Origin: Ophelia neglecta
Taxonomy: Eukaryota
Length of the DNA: 64,000 nucleotides
Direction: 5' to 3'
NCBI GenBank assembly: GCA_965285935.1
Contig: OZ260663.1
Span: forward strand, 14,074,001-14,138,000
The notes below the pieces were generated by a model. That model worked only from the letters and a program-made list of their open reading frames with translations. It had not been told where the DNA came from and did no database searches. Each line of letters starts with the position of its first letter. Position 1 is the first letter of the stretch. This document shows positions 691-63,937 of the stretch, piece by piece. The translations under genes were made by a program, and so were the position numbers.

Positions 691-784
691 TACTGATTTA
701 ACAATTACAGCATGTTTTTTTCTTTTTCAGGTAAGTTGTTCTGAACAATTATGATAGTGTGACCTATGTCTTCATATGGTAAGT
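691..784 (+). other. Candidate recursive splice site with 48-nt cryptic exon (731-778)
   Basis: Branch-like TACTGAT (691), poly-pyrimidine TGTTTTTTTCTTTTTCAG|GTAAGT, second donor ATG|GTAAGT at 779. Confidence 0.7.
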
Positions 785-40101: not shown

Positions 40102-40279
40102 CAGTGAAACCTTCCTTAAAGACCACCTCTATAAGTAGACCATCTGCAAATTCAGACTACTAATATGAAGACCAAAGTATACCCTTTCAATGCAAAATAA
40201 CCTGTGTAAACAGACCGCCTCTGTAATCAGACCAGTATTTGCCAGACCCTTGGGTGGTCTTAATTCACAGGTTTCACTG
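40102..40279. mobile_element. Tc1/mariner-pogo type MITE (178 bp)
   Basis: TIRs CAGTGAAACCT / AGGTTTCACTG flanked by TA duplication (40100-01, 40280-81); internal AGACC repeats with an inverted GGTGGTCTTAA. Confidence 0.85.
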
Positions 40280-40281
40280 TA

Positions 40282-40389
40282 GTTGTATTTTACGTTTGCT
40301 TTCATGTAATCTAGTATTCATGTTTGTATTTTATGTCATTTCATGTAATATAATAGTCATGTTTGTATTTTATGTCTTTTCAGGTAAGT
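40282..40389. repeat. 39-40 bp tandem repeat overlapping the splice acceptor
   Basis: GTTTGTATTTTATGTC.TTTCATGTAAT.TA.TA.TCAT x about 2.7; a further partial unit at about 40078-40100 precedes the MITE. Confidence 0.85.
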
Positions 40390-40453
40390 TTTCTGCTCTT
40401 TAAGCACATTAATTAGGCATGCTCTCTTGCAAGAATACCAGTCCAAGGTAAGT
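40361..40453 (+). other. Candidate recursive splice site with 64-nt cryptic exon (40384-40447)
   Basis: GTTTGTATTTTATGTCTTTTCAG|GTAAGT, second consensus donor AAG|GTAAGT at 40448. Confidence 0.65.
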
Positions 40454-43400
40454 GGAATAGCTATTTTATAATAAGCCTTGAAAAAAATAGATCCTACGGC
40501 TAATGACTCATGGTTTGACTAAGTTTAGAGTTCTATATTCTACAGCAAGCTGACCAATCGTGGATTGAGTCGGTTTAGTAATTTATTCTACAGCCAGCAG
40601 GCGAGACATGGAGTGCTCCTTTTAGTGTTTCGTTCGGGAGCGTCCTTTTAAACTACGTAACTCTATCCACGCCATCTTTGGTCGATTATGATTGACTCTC
40701 TCAGAATTAAACATTGTACATATCATTGACGAGCAATGTCTTCGGCTTTTTTTCGTACAATGAAGCTCGCTCTGATATTAAGCCCTACCTTAGAAAGAAT
40801 AAAATGTTATGTATGGAGCCATCTAAAACAAGAAATATTTAAAGGTTTCGATGAAACTCGACAGTATTGGGCTTAGATAGCCTGCGGAGCTTGCACTTAC
40901 TGAGCAAATTGGCATGCATGATCGTTCCCAATTTCACGAAAAAAATGGGTATTTTTCCTTCACTGCGCATGCATGTAATCCCGAAAAAGGTTTTTTTTTT
41001 TCATCAAACAGGCTTCGCGATAGTTAAAAAAGGAGTATTATTTCAGCCTGATTCTAACAGACAATGGGTCGCCAGAAGCTGTTCATAGTTGTTGTCATAA
41101 TGTTATGTTTTTCCTCCGGTAAAATCACCATGTCAAAAGGAATAATAAGGTATTTTCACTCCTTACCTAATAAGAGTTACTTTAAAAAAGTGGTATTTAA
41201 GATGAAAAATCGGGTTTTTCCCGAAAGAAAAAAACAAGACGTGGAAATACATATAGAAGTCAGTGGAATAGAGGGGATTTTTCAAAGATGAGGACTATTA
41301 TATGTTCTTTATTTATCAGACTCCGGGAGACGTCCATACATGGGAAAATATGAGGAAATGGCCTCCGGAAATGGGTATTGATGTCGCACATCTGTCTGTT
41401 AAATGATGATTCAATGATGCAAACATGAACGTCTCCCAAACCTGGGTCATTAATCGCAGATATATTGTTGTATAGATAATTAGGATAAATAAAAAGTGAA
41501 CTGGTAATATGACTCATGCATATGCTCAATCCATGATAAACATCCTGGTCAGTCAGGAATTTACCCCACACATAAATGATGTGTGTCCCCCCCCCCCCCC
41601 CCGACTGATAACAATGGCTATAGAACCAAGTGCCTCACCTAGCCATCTGACCAATCGCCTCACAACAGCGGCAAAGAATGCAGACCGACGTGTCGTAGTA
41701 CAAATGTGTTTTAGAACTACAAGATATTTGTGACATGGGCTCTTCTTACTAGACACAACGTGATATGCGCCCGATACAAATGTAACATCGGCGACAATTG
41801 GTTACAATATCACTCGGGTATAATATTAGGTCCTAGAACACAGCTACGAGTGTTTGGAGAAAGGTTTTAACCCCTATGCATGCCATAACGACACTCACCA
41901 CCTGCGACACCCATAACTTCCGTAATCATTTAAATAATACATGCCAACAGCGACTACTTAAATGTCCGAATGTTAGTTTACTTATTACATGTTGATTTTT
42001 GATTATAAACAAATTATTTGCTTGTGTACGGGTATACAGAAGTGCCTGTTGATCTAGTCATTATGCTTATGTATTATCGGCTTTTAACGTCACTGTGTTC
42101 TCAATATTATAGTAACTGAGGTTTTCCATAGCAGTCCATAATTTAAGCACTAATAAGCAGAAACGATCCTGCGGGCAGACTTCTGAACGGAAGAAATAAT
42201 GACTAGATCAATAATTAGCTATATAAAAGTAATTGTATATGCCTCATTTGAGCTGACTTGCTTCCGGCTTGGTCAGTCGCTTTTGTCAGACGGCTATGGC
42301 ACCCTCCTCCCCAATCATCGCCCATCTGGCTCATTACCTACATTTGTCTCATTGTAAGTCAACTGCATGGGAAATACTTTTCCTGCCACCCAAGGAATGT
42401 TTCATGATTTCCGCGTCCTGGCCCAACTTCAGACTTATTTTATGCCTTGTACCACTACTGATTTTTCACCTGTTAACCAGAAAAGGTTTAAATGCGTTGT
42501 CGTTAGCTAAGTATCCACGGCCTTTACCTGATTGCCGGCTGACTTATCCAATTTCGCAGAAACTACAGCTCACTGTTGTACAGGATTTAATAAAATAATT
42601 ACGCTCTTTTTTACAATTTTTTAAATGTAGCTAGAAATATGCACGAGGTTATAGCGCAGCCGACAGTTTCAAAAAGCTTTGCACAGCTCATATAGGATCG
42701 ATCTTGCATAAATGACTGGATGTATTTGCTGGTTACCACGAACTTAACCGAACTTACTCAATGCAGGTTGATGTAAGTACACAGCGTTAAGTGAAACAAT
42801 ATTTTTACATCAACAGTATAAGTTACTACTTCGTGTAACGCTTGCCATTCTCGTCTACCAGGAAATGTTAATCTCTTTGATCTAGGAATTCACACTCATG
42901 TCCTTGCACCTGAAGACCCTGGAATTGTCAAGGCCAACATGGTCTTGAATAGACTCTGGCCTGGTATTGGGGTCTGAAACGGACTGATCTGATTTGCTGA
43001 TTCTAAAGGTTTTGGTTTTTATACTGTTCATGCGTGATTGTGGCCTTAGGAATTTGTGGTAGTTGGTTCGTTTGAACTTTTATTCATTTAATGAGTTCAT
43101 TGTAGGCAAGGAATGATAAATTTGTTCTTTGGTGGACTCGAATATACACTTACGCTGGTTCCATTTGAAGCTAGTGTTACATAGTTCGCCTTAGCTTACA
43201 AGGCACTTAGAACATCTGGGCTGTTTGCATCAAATCTTCCAATTGGATTGATTTCAATGTCAATTAAAACAAGAAGTGTGTTTAATGCGTCAGGGAAGTA
43301 TAATGTCAATGTTACATACGCAGGTGGTTGATTATTGCAATGCAATCTTATATGAAAGAAGCCACGTCCATCCTTTACGTAAAGCTAATCTATACCACCT

Positions 43401-46209: not shown

Positions 46210-46679
46210 AATTATCGCTCACAGGTGAAGAAAGCATGCATGGTAATCCCCTGACGAAGATATTCCAATGCTCTCATAGTGGGTGGAATTCCACTTACAA
46301 GACATGGTTTCCATGCTTCTAGTGCTAAGATACTCAACAGGCGATACATAGCCCCATATGTCATGTCGACAACATGATAAATAGGTCGAATACTTAACTT
46401 TGATGCTTTTTCGACTGTGTACGTTTGCTATCAGTCTGCCAAGGTGGTAATTGTAGTTTTACCTTGACGCCATTAAGTAGGTCAGGTCATAGCCGGTCAT
46501 ACTCGCTGTCGGCACCTCAAGTTACCCAAGTAGCCGGGTATTGAAGGAGACTATTCAAACGCCCGCCGAGTCCCCGGAATGTTGATTCACAGAGGGTGGA
46601 TACACGTCGTGATTTCATACAAAGTGCTATTCAACGGGAACCCATGTGTTGGTAACTAACTACAAAGTGGTAAGGTAAA
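46210..46679 (+). promoter_or_regulatory. Putative promoter/5'UTR block of copy A
   Basis: Colinear conserved patches with 62643-63069: AATTATCGyTCACA, GACAACATGwTAAAT, ATCAGT..CAAGGyGGT, GGTCAyACTCGCTsTCGGCACyTCAA, ACAAAGTrCTATTCAA. Inr-like TCAGTC at 46431. GC/CpG-richer sequence at about 46030-46200. Confidence 0.6.
46479..46499 (+). promoter_or_regulatory. DR4-like element plus extra half-site
   Basis: AGGTCA(46484)-tagc-CGGTCA with an overlapping AGGTCA at 46479. Confidence 0.5.
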
Positions 46680-47502
46680 ATGTCCTCAGGTGCAGCAGGC
46701 AGTGTGGATGCACACAGGACTAGTTTAACGATATTAATTTGGTTTATTACCATTCTGGCCGTTGTTTCTGGGAATGTTTCCCCGGCTGAGAATGTGCAGG
46801 TAGTGCGGCTAGGAATTATTCTTCCCGCTAAACCTCCGCCTCATTGCTCGAGCATAAAAGAGGTTCAAACGGTGATGGATTTCGCCTTGGGACGGGTCAA
46901 CAATGGCTTGTTGGATAACATAAGCAGTGTTGAGGGTATAATCGGGGCTGATAACGAGCTTAAACAGGGGGAGATACTTGTCAGGAACTTAGAAGGGAAT
47001 ATTGTTCGGCTTCAGGCCAAGTATGTTGATTCCCAATGCTCGGATCTTTATGCCCCGATCGCCGCTATGAATCTATTTTATAACCGAGAGGTGGATGTTT
47101 ACTTCGGGCCCTGCTGTAAATATGCCCTCTCTCCCGTGGCCAGATACACAAACATCTGGGGGCTACCCGTCATTACGCCCGGGGGACTAACGGAAGCTTT
47201 CAGTGACAAGAGGGAGTTCCCTCTCCTGACTCGCTTCGTGGCCCCCTACGACAAACTGGCCAAGTTCATAACCCGGATATTTATTGCCTTCGGATGGAGG
47301 ATAGGCGGCCTACTATGGCACAATAACATAATATATCGTACTCTGGGCAGCTCGGAGTGTGCCCAAGTTGCCACAGCGCTTATCAGACTCATGAGAAGCA
47401 TGCCCGAATTTGATGACCCATACAAGGAAACTTTTGACGAGGGCGCTTTTGACAATTTTGATTGGGATCGTATTTTGGCAGGGATTAGGAACAATTCACG
47501 CA
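46680..47502 (+). CDS. First coding exon (copy A) of a natriuretic-peptide-receptor-type membrane guanylyl cyclase: signal peptide + N-terminal ANF_receptor ligand-binding domain
   Basis: Hydrophobic leader SLTILIWFITILAVVSG, then family motifs RLGIILP, YVDSQCSD, VDVYFGPCCKYALSPVARY, WGLPVITPGG, EFPLLTR, FGW. Ends ...IRNNSR at CGCA|GTGAGT (823 nt, phase 1), matching the known exon 1 boundary of vertebrate NPR1 (..GR|V). ORF read-through to 47591 is intron. The cyclase domain is not in the window, so an NPR-C-like product cannot be excluded. Confidence 0.92.
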
Positions 47503-62642: not shown

Positions 62643-63069
62643 AATTATCGTTCACACCTGTGGATGCCATTGGCCAAGGATAATGTCCCATTGGTGTTTT
62701 GGTATCAGCAACGTGGCAGGAGCCTAGACATTGCGATATAGCATGAATACACAGGTATACTAGTTTCCGTGTTATGGTCTAGTTTAATAGCAGCCGCCGC
62801 TGATGTCTGACAACATGTTAAATGGAACGAACAGTTAATTTTTATTGCTTGGTGTGTGTGTTAATTAAGCATCAGTTAGTCAAGGCGGTTTAATTGAAAT
62901 GTTTGGCATGAAGTTTGAAACTGTGCCAGGTCAGAGCAGGTCACACTCGCTCTCGGCACTTCAAATCAGCGACAAGGTTTAAAGGCGATCATTAATAGCG
63001 ACCTGTGAGTCCCGTAATCTTTAGGCAAACTCGGCGGAAACACATTGTGCTCACACAAAGTACTATTCA
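62643..63069 (+). promoter_or_regulatory. Putative promoter/5'UTR block of copy B
   Basis: Homologous to 46210-46679; Inr-like TCAGTT at 62872. Confidence 0.6.
62928..62943 (+). promoter_or_regulatory. Perfect DR4 nuclear receptor response element
   Basis: AGGTCA-gagc-AGGTCA; homologous site retained in copy A. Confidence 0.55.
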
Positions 63070-63937
63070 ATGCTAAAGAAAGTATTGGAAATCATTAAAA
63101 TGGCGGAAAGTATAGTGTTGTTTACAGCCGCCGGCAGATTGGATGAAAACAGGCCCAGTTTTGCAATATTATTTTCCTTTATGAGTATTTTGGCCGTTGT
63201 TTCGGGGAATATTTTCACGGCGGAGAATGTACAGGTAGTCCGGCTAGGAATTATTCTTCCCAAGAAACCCCCGACTCATTGCTCGAGCATAGAAGAGATT
63301 CAGCCGGTCATGGATTTCGCCTTGGGACGGGTTAACAATGGCTTATTGGATAACATAAGCAGTGTTGAGGGTATAATCGGGGCGGATAACGAGCTTAAAC
63401 AGGGGGAGATACTTGTCAGGAACTTAGGGGGTAATATTGTTCGGCTTCAGGCCAAGTATGTTGATTCCCAGTGCTCGGATCTTTATGCCCCGATCGCCGC
63501 CATGAATCTATTTTATAACCGGGAGGTGGATGTTTACTTCGGGCCGTGCTGTAAATATGCCTTGTCTCCCGTGGCCAGATACACAAACATTTGGGGGCTG
63601 CCCGTCATTACGCCCGGGGGACTAACGGAAGCCTTCAACGACAAGACGGAGTTCCCTCTCCTGACTCGCTTCGTGGCCCCCTACGACAAACTGGCCAAGT
63701 TCATAACGCGGATGTTAGTGTTTTTCGGATGGCGAAATGCCGGGATTCTTTGGCACAATAACATACTATATCGTTCTCTGGGCAGCTCGGAATGTGAACA
63801 AGTCGCCACATCATTAATCAGACTTATGCGAATCATGCCGGAATTTGTTGAAACATACAAAGAAATATTCGACGAACATGCTTTCGACCAATTCGACTGG
63901 GATAATGTTTTGTTCGGGATAAGGAACAATTCACGCA
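63070..63937 (+). CDS. First coding exon (copy B) of the same NPR-type receptor guanylyl cyclase
   Basis: Paralog of copy A with the same motifs and same phase-1 donor CGCA|GTGAGT (GT at 63938-63939). Start is ATG 63070 or, with better context (aaaATGg), 63100. Confidence 0.92.

Follow-up and report, generated by a model that had tools for sequence, protein, structure and literature searches.

A probable fly-type recursive splice site in the inferred long introns of a receptor guanylyl cyclase gene with variable first exons in Ophelia neglecta

Results

A receptor guanylyl cyclase locus with eight predicted alternative first exons

The window, a 64,000-nt stretch of the 762-Mb Ophelia neglecta genome (G000:C5:14074001-14138000), lies within a receptor guanylyl cyclase gene that extends from window position -134300 to 172739 (G000:C5:13.94-14.25 Mb, + strand). 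The mitochondrial COX1 of this genome reads with translation table 5, and its closest named matches are annelids (75-78%), followed by gastropods and chitons (74-76%), which points to a lophotrochozoan, probably an annelid. The layout was obtained by adding 200 kb on each side, with the window numbering continued, and by tblastn with the full-length receptor guanylyl cyclase P0129, which carries the name 'atrial natriuretic peptide receptor 1-like' in its source. The first coding exon is present in eight copies (V1 to V8), near -134.3, -90.9, -63.9, -57.2, 46.7, 63.1, 121.0 and 122.7 kb and all on the + strand, and the constant exons are found once only in the 464 kb, at 143.6-172.7 kb on the same strand. 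Each variable exon keeps an open reading frame that begins with a hydrophobic stretch and encodes the N-terminal half of an ANF_receptor domain; Pfam was run on V5 and V6, and all eight are among the ANF_receptor matches. The copies are 25-83% identical to one another, and the phase-1 donor that closes each of them is compatible with the exon-2 acceptor at 143585. This is the arrangement of a variable-first-exon gene, with tandem homologous exons of the same phase ahead of one constant region. A separate gene for each receptor exon is ruled out by the single set of constant exons in 464 kb. On this gene model, the receptor exons in the window represent V5 and V6 of the eight alternative N-terminal exons:

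46680..47502, + strand: V5, signal peptide and N-terminal half of the ANF_receptor domain, phase-1 donor (Pfam)
63100..63937, + strand: V6, 83% protein identity to V5, phase-1 donor (Pfam, alignment)

Each variable exon presumably has its own promoter, and CpG content does not mark promoters at the variable exons. The sequences upstream of V5 and V6 match over about 320 nt; this block includes AGGTCA-N4-(A/C)GGTCA direct repeats at 46484-46499 and 62928-62943, which we take to resemble the DR4 element of nuclear receptors. An intronless 645-codon ORF with RING, B-box and NHL matches is located between V2 and V3 (L014:6624-8558; window -73376 to -71442, + strand).

The introns from V1, V2, V3 and V4 to exon 2 would be 277, 234, 207 and 200 kb long, and each contains three recursive-type splice sites, the third of which, site 2, is the subject of this report. 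Since eight variable exons precede a single constant set, site 2 is placed in an inferred intron of 200-277 kb and the transcripts that most likely use it begin 57-134 kb upstream of the window. From V4, the sites divide the intron into pieces of 18.1, 39.1, 39.7 and 103.2 kb.

A paralogous cyclase (G000:C5:12.97-13.05 Mb, - strand; L180-L187) has four variable N-terminal exons and one constant region; three of these exons have phase-1 donors, and the fourth has no donor above threshold. Its introns of up to about 61 kb hold one weak site with no strong second donor. Tandem N-terminal ANF exons are also present at C7:13.26-13.30 Mb. A shared-word search for full-length relatives of V5 returned none, and a HMMER search did find them. 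Two or three tandem N-terminal ANF halves with no C-terminal half are seen in six of the ten public protein models checked, from amphioxus, bichir, two snails, a brachiopod and a spider (P0070, P0062, P0016, P0032, P0012 and P0026), and these six may be mis-joined variable exon arrays. If they are, the public models suggest that the array is old and widely mis-annotated.

Site 2 and its surroundings

Site 2 reads TCTTTTCAG/GTAAGT in the window letters (a slash marks the junction) and is followed 64 nt past its first junction, 40383/40384, by a second donor, AAG/GTAAGT, at 40447/40448. Its parts and immediate neighbours are as follows:

40102..40279, no strand assigned: high-copy miniature inverted-repeat element with CAGTGAAACCT ends and TA on both sides (read depth)
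40300..40387, + strand: 39-bp tandem repeat, 2.3 copies, ending in site 2 (repeat analysis)
40359 (-25), 40353 (-31) and 40348 (-36), + strand: candidate branch-point-like A residues (sequence only)
40364..40383, + strand: pyrimidine tract and CAG acceptor, acceptor score 9.9
40384..40389, + strand: GTAAGT, the donor that would be regenerated once an upstream exon is joined to 40384
40384..40447, + strand: cryptic RS-exon of 64 nt, frameshifting, with a TAA stop in the phase-1 frame
40448..40453, + strand: second donor that would define the cryptic exon, score 12.4

The site thus has the juxtaposed (Y)nNCAG/GTAAGT of fly-type ratchet points, and the downstream donor delimits a short hidden exon. 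Scores were taken from matrices built on 19 acceptors and 20 donors of this gene only and are therefore crude. On this scale the 19 real acceptors range from 5.4 to 13.1, which places the acceptor of site 2 in mid-range; of the three sites in the gene, site 2 combines the lowest acceptor score with the highest second-donor score. The phase-1 frame, in which all variable exons end, meets the TAA within the 64 nt. Folding of 40340-40470 revealed nothing unusual (z 0.70).

The pyrimidine tract of site 2 forms the last part of the 39-bp tandem repeat, whose unit start, TTTCATGTAA, resembles TTTCAGGTAA, the start of the third copy. Because the tract lies within a repeat whose unit start is motif-like, site 2 may have arisen recently, or slippage of the repeat may have involved a site that was already there. 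The miniature inverted-repeat element, about 100 nt upstream, has a read depth above 100,000 vs 10-25 nearby, and sits within a further copy of the 39-bp repeat unit.

A second haplotype was recovered from three public runs of one sample that behave as genomic DNA, the contigs of which also confirm the assembled letters. At site 2 it differs by G40356T, C40376T and T40392C, and both motifs are intact. A 12-nt deletion at 40417 shortens the cryptic exon from 64 to 52 nt, both lengths being 1 mod 3, and a 62-nt deletion follows 40460 (from 40461), beyond the second donor. The pattern fits signals kept around free content, in one sample, and the hidden exon, with its frameshift, stop and haplotype changes, has the unconserved, out-of-frame character of such exons.

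Three sites on one strand

Site 2 is the third of three + strand sites spaced about 39 kb apart (-38343, 731 and 40384). Site 1 occupies the following positions, and lies 39,653 nt from site 2:

711..784, + strand: site 1, pyrimidine tract, CAG/GTAAGT (junction 730/731), 48-nt cryptic exon with stop codons, and ATG/GTAAGT 48 nt on (sequence)

The further upstream site at -38343 reads TTTTCAG/GTAAGT with GGG/GTGAGT 48 nt later, also on the + strand; unlike those of sites 1 and 2, its 48-nt hidden exon is open in phase 1. A 100-N assembly gap separates it from site 1. Two other candidates lie in the locus: a CAG/GTAAGT at 2423/2424, 1.7 kb after site 1, has a weak tract and no second donor, and the CAG/GTGAGA at 81782, 41 kb past site 2, was left uncounted as weak and devoid of a second donor.

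An earlier note, made from the window letters, had described site 2 with its second donor 64 nt on, and the letters are as it described them. It also held that sites 1 and 2 are non-homologous and 39.65 kb apart, that both share the strand of the receptor exons, and that the minus strand has no equivalent. Local alignment (+/-300 nt) of the two sites matches at the motif only, so the two are not homologous; sites and receptor exons are all on the + strand; and the window minus strand has a lone AGGTAAGT, with A at -3 and no pyrimidine tract, with CAGGTAAGT counted six times on + and not at all on - in the 464 kb. The note's uncomputed statement that two such motifs are unlikely by chance can now be given a value. 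Markov models of order 1-3 built on the locus predict about 3e-4 compound motifs per window on both strands together, and 3-4 per genome, and the probability of two or more in the window is 3-7e-8, for a pattern that was defined after the sites were known. These figures are exact Markov sums, which replaced simulated sequence that had yielded too few events (3 in 50 Mb). When acceptor and both donors are scored together over the 464-kb locus, the three sites reach 34.7, 32.8 and 31.5, vs 20.4 for the next + site and 25.1 for the best - site.

Genome-wide behaviour of the motif

The strict motif Y12-NCAGGTAAGT has 29 matches in 762 Mb vs 4 for its reversed control. A near-miss control, GTAAHT (three hexamers together), has 42 matches, many of them in poly-C, and its own reversed control 22. 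The compound form, Y5-NCAGGTAAGT with GTRAGT 25-75 nt on, returns 42 rows, or 33 after merging tandem-repeat rows, vs 20 rows (13 merged) when the second donor is sought at a shifted 125-175 nt. Among the strict sites, a second donor is found for 12/29 at 25-75 nt vs 1/29 at 125-175 nt (Fisher p=0.001). A tighter pattern matches ten times in 762 Mb, three of these being the sites of this gene, and its control does not match.

The sites also cluster by strand. At distances of 5-100 kb, the 29 strict sites form five same-strand and no opposite-strand pairs (0.05 expected), the 33 merged compound sites 11 and none (0.07 expected), and the 42 GTAAHT controls no pairs of either kind. Three of the 11 same-strand pairs come from this locus, one from duplicated sequence on C9, and seven are others. 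The C9 pair (G000:C9:7408250 and 7450220, - strand) consists of homologous compound sites separated by 42 kb, both donors having been kept through a local duplication.

Strand of sites in other long introns

Five further site clusters were taken and their host genes looked up afterwards. In all five cases in which a host was identified, including the receptor cyclase, it lies on the same strand as the sites. At C2:8.0 Mb, a KCNH2-like gene has a 139.8-kb intron between exons that match hERG residues 27-102 and from 104-105 on, with three sites in between. At C12:65.0 Mb, a GABA-B R1-like gene is split at NDTM/CDPG by a 174.5-kb intron with four sites that cut it into pieces of 27-42 kb. In the PLC-like gene at C9:75.6 Mb, exons for PH, PI-PLC-X and C2 begin at 75.72 Mb; a candidate first exon lies 169 kb upstream of these, and four sites are present. 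At C5:87.5 Mb, kinase exons on the minus strand are preceded by five sites on that strand; the gene is presumably PKA-C-like, a name given from its motifs and the Pfam Pkinase match. In both the PKA-C-like and the PLC-like gene, the distal first exon is itself a prediction. The remaining cluster, at C2:18.7 Mb, has three sites on + and one on - and stands outside the count of five, as do clusters at C7:2.3 Mb and C9:7.4 Mb. Three observations concern these regions. Two near-duplicate tandem kinase exons in the PKA-C-like gene (G000:C5:87447659-87449324, - strand; L143) suggest mutually exclusive exons; a 399-codon ORF upstream of its proximal first exon (P0156) has no Pfam or Atlas match; and upstream of the GABA-B R1-like gene a histone-fold ORF resembles a diverged H4 copy (L074:6001-6408, - strand).

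Across the five long introns that could be defined, 847 kb in all, 19 sites are in sense and one is in antisense orientation. As 12 of the 19 had served to pick the regions, the remaining comparison is 7 vs 1 (p about 0.035, hand arithmetic). The single elements over the same 847 kb number 161 sense and 154 antisense for GTAAGT, and 339 and 270 for strong acceptors. The sense-strand enrichment for which the earlier note proposed a check is thus borne out over five chosen introns rather than an annotated whole-genome count. In the other four introns, most sites have a second donor that is weaker or degenerate. The reading of the motif as the ordinary donor of a pyrimidine-rich exon fits the match at 143696/143697, the true end of exon 2, but fails for the sites in introns that separate consecutive coding exons of the KCNH2- and GABA-B R1-like genes.

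Discussion

A recursive site with a hidden exon as the preferred interpretation

We consider it likely, with good though incomplete confidence, that site 2 is a recursive splice site (ratchet point) of the fly type whose hidden exon measures 64 nt, and that it is the last of three sense-strand sites in a predicted 200-277 kb intron. Transcription would start at one of V1-V4. The acceptor at 40383 and the donor at 40448 would define the 64-nt exon, and the variable exon, carried via -38343 and 731, would be spliced to 40384. The donor rebuilt in this step, GAG/GTAAGT for V3/V4 or CTG/GTAAGT for V1/V2, would then be in competition with that at 40448. If the rebuilt donor is used, the hidden exon would leave with the last 103 kb and the variable exon would be joined to constant exon 2; if the second donor is used, an exon that shifts the frame and carries a stop would stay in the message and target it for decay. 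For a transcript from V4, the intron pieces removed in turn would measure 18, 39, 40 and 103 kb. As similar signals are aligned along other giant introns, stepwise removal of long introns is likely in this animal. Strong sites are absent from the last 103-kb segment and from the introns of V5 and V6 (96 and 80 kb), and since these stretches hold none, recursive sites would not be required here for introns of that size.

The closest rival differs from this interpretation mainly in which donor usually wins. The 64 nt could act as a regulated poison exon, retained in part of the messages, chiefly those with V1/V2 starts, and lowering their level by decay. Donor scores at site 2, from the crude matrix of 20 donors, are 13.6 for the rebuilt V3/V4 donor, 9.9 for that of V1/V2 and 12.4 for the second donor. 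Because the second donor is about as strong as the rebuilt one, and stronger for V1/V2, such retention is conceivable, and the length of 1 mod 3 in both haplotypes and the setting of inclusion by donor competition in flies (PMC8605326) agree with it. The crudeness of the matrix weakens this argument, however, the second donor is mostly weaker or degenerate in the other four introns, and the same source describes fly intronic ratchet exons as almost always skipped, so that we regard a mainly regulatory exon as unlikely. Somewhat less probable still is a placement of site 2 in a long 5'-UTR intron or non-coding exon leading to V5, 6.3 kb downstream, instead of the V1-V4 introns. The three sites fill a 103-kb gap that ends at V5, none follow V5, and an acceptor-like site scoring 10.0 stands 759 nt before the V5 ATG. 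Use of that acceptor, however, would add 13 upstream ATGs, a score of that size is expected 0.3 times per 1.5 kb, no acceptor with a score of at least 7 is present within 1.5 kb of V3, V6 or V8, and the shared upstream sequence of V5 and V6 is as for a duplicated promoter and first exon.

The local repeat raises the further thought that site 2 is an unused, neutral by-product of the 39-bp tandem duplication and two or three substitutions. The resemblance between the unit start and the third copy, the transposon 100 nt away and the lowest acceptor score of the three all point in this direction, but the same likeness would result if the repeat had slipped between a pre-existing site and a similar word upstream of it. 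A neutral origin also leaves unexplained the second perfect donor outside the repeat and the 39.65-kb spacing that matches that of the neighbour, and both motifs survive in a haplotype with deletions around them. With three of only ten tight-pattern matches in this gene and none in the control, we judge this to be the least probable of the readings, and quite improbable in its own right.

Relation to known systems

In Drosophila, ratchet points with cryptic RS-exons (Ubx, kuz, Bx, luna) have the consensus (Y)nNCAG/GTAAGT on the sense strand of long introns, several per intron, and a short hidden exon of about 50 nt, poorly conserved, out of frame and usually skipped, with a downstream donor and a competition between donors, according to the portions of PMC8605326, PMC5126111, bioRxiv 10.1101/006163 and PMC6110457 drawn on here. 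Of these features, the sites described above share the motif, its recurrence along one intron, the short hidden exon, out of frame and little conserved, that ends at a second donor, and the position on the sense strand within a long intron, which for V1-V4 to exon 2 is predicted from DNA. Their density of 2.2 per 100 kb compares with 2.196 in fly introns above 50 kb (PMC2773006), although the scoring differs and the introns here were chosen for their sites, and the segments of 13-103 kb compare with a fly mean of 18 kb and a maximum of 63.6 kb (bioRxiv 10.1101/006163). Unlike the Drosophila cases, the present ones belong to a different phylum, are predicted from DNA, and have eight alternative coding first exons feeding the same sites. 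In vertebrates, RS-exons of long neuronal genes are defined through a downstream donor, with donor competition following (Sibley 2015 and Blazquez 2018, as cited in PMC8605326 and PMC5126111); PMC8605326 speaks of only nine fully suppressed intronic sites in mammals, vs at least 19 sites in five genes here.

In the survey of Shepard et al. 2009 (PMC2773006), such sites are enriched on the sense strand in the fly, mosquito, bee and beetle and also in the sea urchin, and vertebrates show no such excess. The present sites have in common with its RP-sites in sea urchin, mosquito, bee and beetle a sense excess in large introns, there 4- to 22-fold. No lophotrochozoan is among the 13 species of that survey, and the sections considered here treat neither the second donor nor clustering. 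The suggestion of the earlier note that the finding would extend recursive splicing to an uncharacterised lineage therefore holds in part. No published study of recursive splicing in lophotrochozoans (annelids, molluscs) was found in a search that mostly lay outside subscription journals, and supplements could list more species; the sea urchin, mosquito, bee and beetle sites (PMC2773006) come before it as extensions beyond the fly. The mechanism is thus already known, what would be new is a lineage for which no published case was found, and site 2 is very probably a functional member of the known class.

The greater novelty may lie in the variable-first-exon receptor array. Like UGT1 and the clustered protocadherins (PMC3325998, PMC1885805), the gene combines tandem variable first exons with one constant set. 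Unlike in these, the variable part is the N-terminal half of the ligand-binding domain of a receptor guanylyl cyclase. Separate promoters are presumed for the array. No paper on a receptor guanylyl cyclase with variable first exons was found, and the portion of PMC10876440 considered here is silent on variable first exons of fly CG34357. As the last three bases of the rebuilt donor come from the chosen first exon, the 64-nt exon could be skipped or kept according to the promoter. A speculative extension, which we hold to be possible but rather doubtful, is that V1-V8 swap the outer half of the ligand-binding domain, the recursive chain spans the 200-277 kb, and the choice of first exon sets the fate of a 64-nt poison exon and so tunes the isoforms.

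If the sites are used, exon-defined recursive splicing would be present in the third great bilaterian branch. Together with flies, vertebrates and the computational signal in the sea urchin, these sites would then, if the interpretation is true, make stepwise removal of giant introns ancestral to bilaterians. The genome provides an exact and short list of targets, 19 sites in five signalling genes. The host gene poses a second question: one locus may supply up to eight receptors with different outer halves, and the recursive sites may be what sets their ratios.
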